Below are positions 14,001 to 63,310 of a DNA stretch of 64,000 bases, piece after piece. The notes below the pieces were generated by a model, which did no database searches, had not been told where the DNA came from, and was given only the letters and a program-made list of their open reading frames with translations. The stretch is taken from the NCBI RefSeq assembly GCF_964213995.1, contig NC_135811.1, positions 77,500,001-77,564,000 of the forward strand. Reading direction: 5' to 3'. A program made the translations under genes and the position numbers. How positions within the stretch are numbered: the stretch's first letter is position 1; every line of letters starts with the position of its first letter. This DNA is from Mustelus asterias (taxonomy: Eukaryota).

Positions 14001-14276
14001 TAAACACTGATAAATACTGGAGACTTTTTGTTTATTAAATGGATAGAAATTACAAGCCCAAATTTATTTCTCTCCTGATCTGCCTTGGAAAACAAACAGA
14101 CCCAATCTGATTCGAATCCCACTCTGGGTGCAGTTTCAACTCACCATTCGATTGAGTTTGCTGAGTGTGTGTTTGTTGAGAACTTGATGTAACTGCAGCC
14201 TCTCGCAGCCCAGACTGAGGGTCCCGGACAAGAAGAGCGACACCATCCAAAATCTCCAAATCCTCGCCAAAGCCAT
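5014..14276 (-). CDS. Type I interferon gene 1 (divergent paralog), 4 coding exons, 186 aa
   Basis: Exons: 14145-14276 ([44 protein letters not shown]|gtgag), 9104-9193 ([30 protein letters not shown]), 5225-5464 (TQDRIQ...[33 protein letters not shown]), 5014-5112 ([32 protein letters not shown]). All introns GT-AG, phase 0. Signal peptide, 4 Cys and CAWE motif are type I IFN hallmarks. Joining the 14.1-kb exon 1 to exon 2 is inferred. Confidence 0.85.
5610..5870 (+). mobile_element. V-SINE-related SINE
   Basis: tRNA head plus V-domain, with a different 3' tail. Confidence 0.7.
6192..7343. mobile_element. GC-rich non-autonomous DNA transposon (MITE-like) nested in a Deu-SINE-like repeat
   Basis: Terminal inverted repeats ggccacaattcttcc ... 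gggagaattgcggcc. The flanks (about 6095-6191 and 7344-7590) join into one SINE-like sequence. Confidence 0.6.
7693..8015 (-). mobile_element. V-SINE (HE1-like)
   Basis: Full-length reverse copy: tail, V-domain, tRNA head. Confidence 0.85.
8286..8780. mobile_element. Inverted pair of Penelope terminal repeats in gene 1 intron 2
   Basis: About 8286-8515 is the near-perfect reverse complement of about 8521-8746. Hammerhead motifs at 8342-8380 (-) and 8654-8692 (+). Confidence 0.85.
9317..9368 (-). pseudogene. Degenerate proximal exon 1 of IFN gene 1
   Basis: ATG CCT TTG GCG AGT ... CTG AGC AAA resembles both ends of the 132-nt exon 1, with the signal-peptide core missing. The only candidate donor (G|gtgcgt) is phase 1. 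It is followed by the same 5'UTR/promoter-A sequence as in the other genes. Confidence 0.7.
9497..9935. repeat. Degenerate (GT/CT)n microsatellite
   Basis: About 440 bp of low-complexity TG/TC sequence. Confidence 0.9.
10700..11070 (+). mobile_element. CR1 LINE 3' end
   Basis: Degenerate RGHSLKIRR...RRNF motif plus CR1-type 3'UTR. Confidence 0.7.
11150..11820 (+). mobile_element. Old L2-like LINE 3' fragment
   Basis: gactattccaac... and terminal tgtgaagcactttgg...aaggtgctatataaat resemble L2 3' ends. Confidence 0.55.
12460..13760 (-). mobile_element. Degenerate CR1 LINE fragments (with a nested CR1 tail near 12805-12950)
   Basis: Reverse strand encodes [15 protein letters not shown] RT C-terminal motifs. 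Confidence 0.7.
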
Positions 14277-15214
14277 GACCGACCGAGTCAGAGGGAAAGC
14301 CCGATGTGGAAGAGGAGAAACCGGCGGCTTTGGTGGTTCAGCGGCGAGAACGGTTCTTGCGAAGAGAATTCAAGTCGGGAAGTGGATCCGGGAGCGAGCG
14401 CCTGTGTTGCCGAATGGTGTGAGTGTGGATTCTGCTGCGAGCTGGCACAGGCACTGCCAGGCTGCCCGCTTTAATGTGTGCCTATTACATTGCAAAAGTG
14501 AAAATGGGCTGCAGGAGTTTTGGGAGAGCTGCGGGAGATCAATAGTTTGTGCGGTTTCTGTGTGAGGTCAGGAATGGGAAAGCTGGAGACTCCCGAGGCA
14601 GCGAGTGAGAAATCCCCGGGAGAAAATCACAAGCAGCGCTCGGTTGCAGCTCAGTGTTGTGTGCGCTTCACATCACCCGGGGGGGCACTAAGGTACTGCA
14701 TAGGTGGGCTCTGTATTGGGGGGCAGTGTGGACATGGATTGGGGGCTGCATTTGACCATCCGGATGATAGAGACACCGAGAGCGGCGCCTTTTAGTGCGG
14801 ACATTCGGCCCCATTCCCTCTGCTATCCCCGCTGTGTTCACATCGCGTTTGCCGTGTTCACACTTCCCAGCTTGAACATTGCAGAGAGACCGGCTCAGAG
14901 CCCAGGCTCGCCGCTTAATGGAGACTGACTCCGCTCCCATTGAGCTGCCCCACAATCTGCTCTTTAACTGCAAGAAGTAGCTCATTTCTCGCTTCTTTTC
15001 TGCAGCCATTTCCAGACTCTGACTGAGAGAATATTGAATCTGTTCCGATTCTTTTCGCCCCGTTTGTGCCGAAAGCGAAGTGCCTCAGGGAAAGTGAGGC
15101 GTTTTGTCGTTTCCGACAGTGGGGAGAGTTTGTGAAGAGAGCGGCTCAGACTGAGAGGGCTGAGGGGAGGGGCTGCCAAGGGGGTTCTGATATTCGTATT
15201 TATCCCCGCTTTCA

Positions 15215-15780
15215 ACAGGCAATAAGATATAGGGGCAGAATTAGGCCATTTGGCCCATCGAGTCCGCTTCGCCATTCGATCATGGCTGATATGCTCCTCA
15301 ACTACCATTTTCCTACCTTCTCCCCTAACTCTTCAACCCATTACCAATTAAAAATCTGTCTAACTCCTCCTTAAATTTACTCACTGTCCCAACATCCACC
15401 GCACTTTGGGGTAGCACATTCCACAGATTCACAACCCTTTGGGAGAAGTAGTTTCTCCTCTACTCAGTTTTAAACTTGCTACCCCTTATCCTAAATCTAT
15501 GACCTTCCGTCCTAGAATGCCCCACAAGAGGAAGCATCCGCTCCACGTCTACTTTATCCACACCTTTTATCATCTTGTATACCTCAATTTTCTAATCTCA
15601 TTCTTCTAAATTCCAGAGAGTATCGGCCTAAACTATTCAATCTCTCTTCATACGACAAGCCCCTCATCTGTGGAATCAATCTAGTGAACCTCCTCTGAAC
15701 TTTCCTCAAATGAGGGGACCAAAACTGTGCACAATACTCCAGATGCAACCTCACTGATGCCTTCTATAGTTTCAACAATA
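15215..15780 (-). mobile_element. CR1 LINE 3' fragment (copies at about 35560-36150 and 54790-55380)
   Basis: LSYEERL...GVDKVD...HRFRIRGSKFKT motifs. Confidence 0.8.
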
Positions 15781-61579: not shown

Positions 61580-63178
61580 GACCGACCGAGTCAGAGTGAA
61601 ACACCGAACTGAGGATAAGACACCGACCAAATCCGGGTTCAACTCCGAACAAATATTTTTAAACGAATGAAAATGTAAATAGTTCCGCTTCTGAACCCCG
61701 AGTGAACGGCTGAGCTGTTCAGTTCTCTTTCCGTGTGTCTGTCTGTCTCTCTCTGTGTATCCGTGTATATAGGTGGACTGTGCTGGGAGGAACTGTCTCT
61801 GCCATGCTGTCTCAGGGGCTGGCGATTACATTGGAAAAGTGAAATCTGGTAGCTGGAGTTTTGGAAGTTCTTCAGTAGAGGAATAGTTAATCTGCTCCCT
61901 GTCTGAGGTAAGGAATCGGAAAGCTGGAGTTTCCGGAACCAGGGACTGAAAGCTCCCGGAGAGAAAAATCACAAACAGCGCTCGGTTCCAGCTCAAAGTT
62001 CCAACAATCGGAATCAATATTATTAATATCCATTTTGTGAAAACAGATTATTGCATTCAAAGTTATTTTGATTCACATTAAGGGGACAAGAAAAGTTGCG
62101 GTTGGTCAGATGGTTGGATTTTGAGGCTGTTCTTCTTGAGTTCTCTGTCCGAAGGCGGGCCCAACCCATTTTCCCACAAGAGCTCCATAAGATGATCATT
62201 ACATTCAGAAATGACACTCAATGTGCCCGTGACACAGGTAAACTCTCCCTCCTCCTTGTCGCTCTGTCCGCAGCCTTTGAGATGGGCGCGCAGACCATCA
62301 TCATTCAACTCTCTCCCCCACGGTGCAACTGATGGGGAGCACTCTCTCTGCCTCTCATTCTTACTGAAGTCATTGTACCCTGAGAATATCCAGAATCGCA
62401 TCTTTTCTCCCCCACACTCCACCACGCACCTCACCTTTCAGCCTCTGCTGTCCATGAGGATCTCTCCCTGCTCCCTTTTCTAATTCTCATCTCCACGCTG
62501 CCCCATGGGGACATCACTCACCATTTACCCATCACCCCTGTGCTGGTTGAATTACGTTGGCTCCTGCTTCAGGAATGCCTTGATTTTAAAAATCTCACCC
62601 AAATTTTCAAACTCCGCCAGTCCCTCATCCCTCCCTATCTCTGTAATCACCTCCAGCCGCGAATCCCTACGAGATACCTGCTCCGCTCCAATTCTTACCC
62701 CGCGCCCCCCCCCCCCCCACCGCCCCCCCTTCCCAGAATTCCCCATTTTCATTCAACCACCATGGGTGGTGTCTCTTCAGCTGCTCAACCCTCAAACTCT
62801 GTAATTTCTGCCCTAAACCTCTCCGCCCCTCTTTACCCCATTTAAACGCTCCTTAAAATCAACTTCATTCAAGTTATTGCTCACCTGCCTCAGTATCTCC
62901 TCGTCTGACTGACTAGCCAATGTTTCTGGATAACACGCCTGTGAATCACTTTGAACCATCAATCTCTCTCTATAATGATGAGTGCTTGTTACTGATGGGC
63001 TGTCTCTGATTTCCCCCCTCTCAGGCTCACATTCCCCTTTATCCTTCACTCAGTCCCCTTCTCCTCAATGTCTGCTTTCTATTTCTCTCTCCGATCAGAG
63101 TTGCTCCTTCAAACAGATTCAAATTCAATCTCTCCCGGTCCCTCTCTCCCCTCAATATCATTCCCAGTTTCAACTCAC

Positions 63179-63310
63179 CATTTGATTGAGTTTGCTGAGT
63201 GTGTGTTTGTTGAGTACTTGCTGTAACTGCAGCCTCTCGCAGCCCAGACTGAGGGTCCCGGTCAAGAAGAGCGACACCATCCAAAATCTCCAAATCCTCG
63301 CCAAAGCCAT
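63179..63310 (-). CDS. Distal alternative exon 1 (promoter B) of IFN gene 6
   Basis: 132 nt intact signal-peptide exon with phase-0 donor. Confidence 0.75.

Follow-up and report, generated by a model that had tools for sequence, protein, structure and literature searches.

A window of 64,000 nucleotides (nt) of the Mustelus asterias genome (contig NC_135811.1, positions 77,500,001-77,564,000 of a 3.68-Gb genome) carries six type I interferon (IFN) genes on its minus strand, in which the first exon appears to have been duplicated together with the promoter-like region in front of it. On balance, sequence comparison favours a model in which the distal copy, headed by promoter B, is the main start of transcription and the proximal copy, headed by promoter A, is a secondary or spare start under relaxed constraint, the exons themselves being kept alike by gene conversion. 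That the distal start is used at all appears very probable. Transcripts would start at B and join the distal donor directly to exon 2, the proximal exon being removed with the intron, to give an ordinary secreted IFN of 186 amino acids. The duplication would have occurred once, before the split between the divergent gene 1 and the other genes of the array (hereafter the family), and therefore before the main orders of galeomorph sharks diverged. Crossing over between these exon repeats would since have helped to amplify the array and made the third copy now found in gene 2. An intact promoter A with its exon can probably fire too, with the same type of interferon regulatory factor (IRF) site, a TATA-like box and nearly the same protein.

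The duplicated promoter and first-exon module

Each of the six genes has four exons (132, 90, 240 and 99 nt) and three phase-0 introns, with cysteines at positions 24, 52, 124 and 159, and the Pfam Interferon alpha/beta domain PF00143 was found in all four proteins scanned (E 1e-24 to 1e-27). Domain, cysteines and exon number are those of cartilaginous-fish type I IFN, for which passages of PMC5332411 give four exons and three introns. Together with flanks of 230 kb (coordinates beyond 1-64000 are window coordinates extended along the contig), the subfamily with doubled first exons comprises 13 genes, namely gene 1 and the 12 near-identical paralogs of the family, tandem duplicates at 91-96% identity. 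By motif scan and blastn, 12 full-length copies of exon 1 were located in the window on the minus strand, with ATGs at 63310, 61579, 53732, 51990, 44239, 42540, 34517, 32813, 25342, 23620, 21917 and 14276. All retain the ATG, an open frame, Cys24 and a phase-0 GTGAG donor, the copy at 42540 being 126 nt long through an in-frame 6-nt deletion. The proximal exon is separated from exon 2 by an intron of 94 nt, and the distal exon stands 1699-1742 nt from the proximal one, or 3425 nt in gene 2, where a third copy lies in between. These positions and spacings agree with those put forward in the first-pass annotation, as does its report that no exon 2 follows the distal copies: nhmmer found no remnant of exon 2, 3 or 4 in the six stretches behind them (best E 0.37). 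However, its claim that all 12 copies are intact holds for the window and not for the rest of the cluster, where three proximal exons are frameshifted and one has a Cys-to-Tyr change. Nor does the layout belong to every IFN gene, as was claimed, for 13 neighbours have a single exon 1 and one family gene (exon 2 at 123266) has lost its distal copy. A genome-wide search with exon 1 gave 38 matches, made up of 25 copies at 91-100% identity in the array and 13 weaker ones, the latter belonging to 12 compact IFN genes and one neighbour gene, each with a single first exon. Distal and proximal exons are about 95% alike, and the distal exon encodes the same signal peptide in all 12 copies. Of 12 NCBI gene models, which are predictions only, 8 contain the distal exon and 4 the proximal one.

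Promoters A and B are colinear and 69-72% identical over the 400 or so nt that precede the ATG, and promoter and exon were therefore duplicated as one module. With consensus patterns for IRF, kB, TATA and interferon-stimulated response element (ISRE) motifs, a single IRF-type site is common to both promoters (12/12 copies each). A strict kB-consensus match is present in all 12 copies of promoter B, whereas in promoter A the match is loose and confined to 8 of 12; the TATA-like TATATA occurs in promoter A alone, in 12/12 copies. The first-pass annotation had imagined two differently wired programmes, one of them an ISRE-rich feedback promoter. However, the ISRE pattern matched the IRF site of A and not promoter B, which is not ISRE-rich, and the two are copies of one module sharing one IRF-type site. 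Gene 6 may serve as an example. Its promoter B (63311-63720) is CpG-rich, with a kB-like match at about -327 and the IRF-type site at about -236, and leads into the distal exon 1 (63179-63310), which encodes the signal peptide and the start of mature IFN. Promoter A (61580-62001), about 72% like B and with TATATA at about -192, leads into the proximal exon 1 (61448-61579), and exons 2-4 (61353-61264, 59225-58986 and 58876-58778; span 58778-61353) are open. In the genome, the 750 nt upstream of the distal ATG are confined to this cluster, and part of the distal intron is a dispersed repeat.

Constraint on the distal and proximal copies

Diversity among paralogs (pi) is 0.018 in promoter B and 0.020 in the distal exon, to be set beside 0.019 in exon 3 and 0.018 in exon 4, whereas promoter A reaches 0.073-0.077, with 0.067 in intron 2, 0.047-0.054 in the distal intron and 0.035 in the proximal exon. 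The zone of low diversity takes in promoter B, the distal exon and the first 300 or so nt of the intron, and among the same 10 genes variable positions number 24/393 in B, 99/416 in A and 129/585 in the intron. DNA from a second shark (run X6, organism C) covered 30 of 30 bins of the 5' region of gene 4. Among the 8 of 637 contig pieces listed, which may derive from any of the paralogs, differences from gene 4 amount to 10/227 in promoter B (about 4%), 22/194 and 25/180 in promoter A (11-14%) and 15-18 of 172-179 in the intron (9-10%). The DNA of this shark holds all parts of the layout, in an order that the listed pieces do not prove, as none of these 8 of 637 spans a distal exon-intron or promoter-exon joint by at least 31 letters on each side.

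Damage is distributed in the same sense. None of 12 distal exons is damaged, and five encode an identical peptide, whereas proximal positions are disabled at 4 of 13, through three frameshifts (129083, 115019 and 97870) and one remnant, and one further (88658) has lost Cys24 by the change to Tyr; of the 12 family proximal exons, one more has the in-frame deletion mentioned above. Three family genes (exon 2 at 128858, 97648 and 88432) combine open bodies (exons 2-4) with a damaged proximal exon and, together with gene 1, make up four genes with open exons 2-4 in which the only sound first exon is the distal one; in gene 1 that exon and exons 2-4 form an open protein of 186 amino acids. The only gene without a distal exon (exon 2 at 123266) is a pseudogene, with a stop and a frameshift in exon 3. 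The possibility, allowed for at first, that distal exons are duplication debris does not fit a promoter B as conserved as the coding exons. The first-pass annotation had treated the proximal module as the given one, but it is this module that drifts at the intron rate and breaks. In practice, whoever clones the promoter adjacent to the proximal exon is likely to obtain the less conserved of the two, and genes with a broken proximal exon would be miscalled as pseudogenes.

Several points weigh against a main start at B. The counts are small (Fisher's test on 4/13 against 0/12, p 0.096, or 0.039 with the Cys loss included), the paralogs are not independent in either the diversity or the damage comparison, and the proximal frameshifts, being taken from an assembly, could include assembly errors. 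A conversion hotspot might account for part of the low diversity of B, and two genes whose exon-2 donors are broken nevertheless have intact distal exons. The ratio of non-synonymous to synonymous polymorphism (pN/pS) fails to distinguish the two exon classes, being about 0.5-0.6 in each. Evidence from other species consists of automatic gene models and short contigs rather than genome alignments, and no transcript covers either start or the joint from distal exon to exon 2. A spliced contig came from only one of four runs (X5, organism B); it joins exons 3 and 4 without cover over exons 1-2 or either promoter, and has no bearing on start use. As to A being only a spare, it keeps a CpG observed/expected ratio of 0.78, the IRF-type site and TATATA in 12/12 copies. 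Further, no family gene (0/12) has collapsed to a single exon 1, the reciprocal product of unequal crossover, although a direct repeat invites such deletion, and this is therefore the best argument that A is not simply useless. CpG decay gives no sign that promoter A has long been dead.

A possible, though not a probable, alternative is that both modules are under selection and fire under different conditions or in different cells, the variation of A then being regulatory diversification. The motifs and CpG content retained by A would suit such a design, as would the likely persistence of A since before the split of gene 1 from the family, its presence in every family gene, the occurrence of two exon-1 types on near-identical bodies in zebra shark and catsharks (below), and the fact that the A copy of gene 1, whose exon is dead, has no TATA match. 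However, A varies at the intron rate both within the array and against organism C, the proximal exons are disabled at nearly a third of their positions, and the motif content of A and B is that of one homologous module rather than of two programmes.

Other sharks, skates and related first-exon systems

The layout is likely to be old in sharks, as judged from gene 1 and from gene models of other species. The first exon of gene 1 that is intact is the distal one (14145-14276), behind promoter B and its upstream region (14277-15050), which is found only in this cluster within the genome and has translated matches in catshark and epaulette shark. Its first intron, of 4951 nt, contains an old colinear homologue of the family distal intron at 63-67% identity (11494-12015; local score 126 against a shuffle maximum of 53). 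This homologue is followed by a copy of promoter A (9899-10263), 88-93% like family A, and then by a proximal exon-1 remnant (9316-9447; ATG 9368), mostly deleted and with a donor-like site out of phase, which has the Ser5 codon of the proximal type. The order B-intron-A was therefore present in both lineages. Exons 2-4 of gene 1 (9193-9104, 5464-5225 and 5112-5014; span 5014-9193) are open and belong to a divergent paralog with orthologues in other sharks. Between the promoter-A copy and the remnant, the short GA repeat of promoter A has grown into a degenerate CA/GA repeat of about 400 nt (9500-9900).

Trees of exons 2-4, built from 32 and 25 proteins chosen from 77 and 141, set gene 1 apart from the family in carcharhiniform, lamniform and orectolobiform sharks alike, orders that separated about 200 million years ago, and gene-1-like bodies are present in four shark orders. 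A clade confined to Mustelus was rejected by the approximately unbiased (AU) test (p-AU 0.004); the gene-1 clade was not rejected (p-AU 0.37) but was recovered in only one of the two trees (85/97). In the epaulette-shark gene model P0074, the first 162 residues correspond to promoter B in translation, beginning near -700 (E as low as 1e-12); an exon-1 start in a different frame comes next, followed by a second, complete exon 1 in front of a family-type body. Such a model implies two exon-1 copies in the epaulette-shark genome, although it may be a chimera of two genes. The catshark model P0087 has the same promoter-B region before a gene-1-type exon 2. Decay or absence of the distal copies in relatives, which would have spoken for debris, is thus not what these models indicate; no further model with translated promoter B was found among 528 candidates. 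In the zebra shark, two exon-1 types stand on bodies that differ by one residue or none, and in catsharks they stand on both body types, as might be expected, by indirect reasoning, if annotators picked one of two exons. A whale-shark "isoform X1" (three accessions, one protein) was set aside as evidence, no other isoform having turned up.

Separate promoters and gene conversion are features of clusters of variable first exons. The arrangement seen here, of tandem first exons, each with a promoter-like region and an in-phase donor, upstream of shared exons, recalls UGT1, GCNT2 and the protocadherins, in which, according to the part of PMC1885805 consulted, each of several tandem variable first exons is spliced to common downstream exons. 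In those clusters, however, many exons diversify a protein with one constant region, whereas each shark IFN gene has two near-identical exons, whose consensus peptides differ at 3/44 residues, and the whole unit was then amplified twelve times. Closer in function are salmon IFNa, zebrafish IFNphi1 and trout IFN1, described in passages of PMC5127012 and PMC3828176 as having two promoter regions and alternative 5' ends; the long form of teleost IFNa/IFNphi1 is given there, and in parts of PMC5536018 and PMC4929537, as one without a signal peptide that yields an intracellular IFN. Mustelus thus shares with teleosts an IFN gene with two promoter regions, but here one and the same signal-peptide exon is present twice, at the distal start as well as at the proximal one, and both promoters are copies of one module. 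The passages seen of PMC5332411 mention no duplicated promoter and exon 1, and the main text of PMC6640115 uses neither "exon" nor "promoter". A literature search, from which most subscription journals and supplements lay outside, found no description of a doubled exon 1 in shark IFN. The feature is real and apparently undescribed, and may be regarded as a variant of alternative-first-exon architecture. Output of type I IFN is governed mostly by the promoter, and it is known to be varied by adding genes and, in teleosts, by using an upstream start from which the signal peptide is missing; a duplicated module of promoter and signal exon, if kept across shark orders, would be a third way.

Several skate IFN models (P0092, P0116-P0129 and P0144, one skate member coming from a 902-nt Logan contig) have a short upstream exon without a signal peptide, spliced to exon 2 or exon 3, which hints at a teleost-like intracellular IFN in batoids. 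In two skate species a single residue, located in that upstream exon, is all that distinguishes isoform X1 from X2, and the models suggest either duplicated upstream exons or cross-paralog predictions. The skate exon bears a weak resemblance (E 0.03-0.3) to sequence lying some 400-450 nt ahead of the distal ATG, unrelated matches being equally good, and the resemblance is a lead only. It is conceivable, but unlikely, that sharks, and perhaps skates and rays, have kept since early on a three-tier IFN 5' end, in which two working modules, homogenised by conversion, would secrete the same IFN under different conditions and rescue each other, and the upstream signal-less exon would give an intracellular IFN.

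Probable exchange between copies and layout of the array

Distal and proximal exons are separated by a synonymous distance of 0.075, whereas the distance between the promoters is about 0.29; sequence variants are common to both exon classes, and across sharks exon 1 groups by species, a gene-1 clade being rejected (p-AU 6e-5). The likeness of the exons and their grouping by species are likely due to conversion or crossover limited to the exon and a few flanking bases. Exon 1 misleads IFN phylogenies, because it follows the species and not the gene lineage. The middle module of gene 2 (23489-24047; exon 1 at 23620-23489), with an A-type promoter in front, a B-type intron behind and mixed A/B letters in the exon, is likely the product of unequal crossover between two exon-1 copies. 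The other modules of this gene are promoter B with distal exon 1 (25211-25800; exon 25342-25211) and promoter A with proximal exon 1 (21786-22340; exon 21917-21786), upstream of open exons 2-4 (21691-21602, 19564-19325 and 19216-19118; span 19118-21691).

Crossover of this kind could also have left distal modules behind as by-products, A with the proximal exon being the working start and the distal copy the orphaned 5' end of a deleted neighbour, carried along in tandem and cleaned by conversion from gene 1. The third copy in gene 2 attests to active unequal crossover, the family B modules, at 94-95% identity to that of gene 1, could be renewed from it, a TATA-like box precedes the proximal exon, which is 94 nt away from exon 2, and distal exons remain intact even in damaged genes. 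Nevertheless, this account appears quite improbable. Promoter B is present even in the top-most gene, where the DNA upstream of it is unique; in gene 1 the same B-intron-A order is found, with an intron whose homology to that of the family is old; and no remnant of exons 2-4 was found behind B. Moreover, the proximal exon is damaged in three family genes whose bodies are open, and the gene models place B in front of a family-type body in the epaulette shark and of a gene-1-type body in a catshark. A related proposal, that distal modules occur only at junctions of tandem units, was rejected because a distal module is present in the top-most gene as well. The distal intron showed no homology to DNA upstream of B, nor did the intron starts of the subfamilies to one another; of 8 pairs scored, the one that rose above shuffles was the distal intron against the intron of gene 1. 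That promoter A is an intronic enhancer, or a splice acceptor for upstream non-coding exons, with its exon a mere passenger, is scarcely credible: gene 1 does keep the A core beside a dead exon, and an AG follows a pyrimidine run about 30 nt before the proximal ATG in 6/6 copies examined, but A is no better conserved than intron, the AG-to-ATG distance of 29 or 30 nt does not conserve frame, and conversion alone could explain the copy in gene 1.

The layout of two modules per gene recurs in genes 3 to 5, all on the minus strand. In gene 5, promoter B with distal exon 1 spans 53601-54140 (exon 53732-53601), promoter A with proximal exon 1 spans 51859-52415 (exon 51990-51859), and exons 2-4 lie at 48076-51764, the exon-2 donor being damaged (ATGAGT, with AT in place of GT). 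The same GT-to-AT change is present in two paralogs (window 51674 and extended 114705), and NCBI models read through to a later site, adding residues. Gene 4 has promoter B with distal exon 1 at 44108-44659 (exon 44239-44108), promoter A with the shortened proximal exon 1 at 42415-42963 (exon 42540-42415) and open exons 2-4 at 39758-42320. The corresponding parts of gene 3 are at 34386-34975 (exon 34517-34386), 32682-33235 (exon 32813-32682) and 29985-32587, the last again open. The promoter A of the top-most gene contains a repeat-like insert of about 690 nt (extended 130074-129388), and the proximal exon of this gene is frameshifted.

Beyond the subfamily, a second array of 12 compact plus-strand IFN genes (extended -110034 to -24694) has one exon 1 per gene and an unrelated promoter. 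Its exon 3 is 86-90% like that of the family, exons 1-2 being far more divergent, which suggests conversion of exon 3 across IFN subfamilies; in one copy the donor behind exon 2 is GC. Other divergent IFN genes, or fragments of them, lie at extended -8858 to -9272, at -116846 to -118713 and at C11:77356642, the gene at -8858 appearing frameshifted in exon 3. A stretch of 13.6 kb is repeated at 99.8% identity on each side of a gap of 200 N (extended 131801-145392 and 145593-159204) and is likely a false duplication in the assembly. Finally, intron 2 of gene 1 contains a near-palindrome formed by two arms, each of about 230 nt, of a dispersed repeat (8286-8743).

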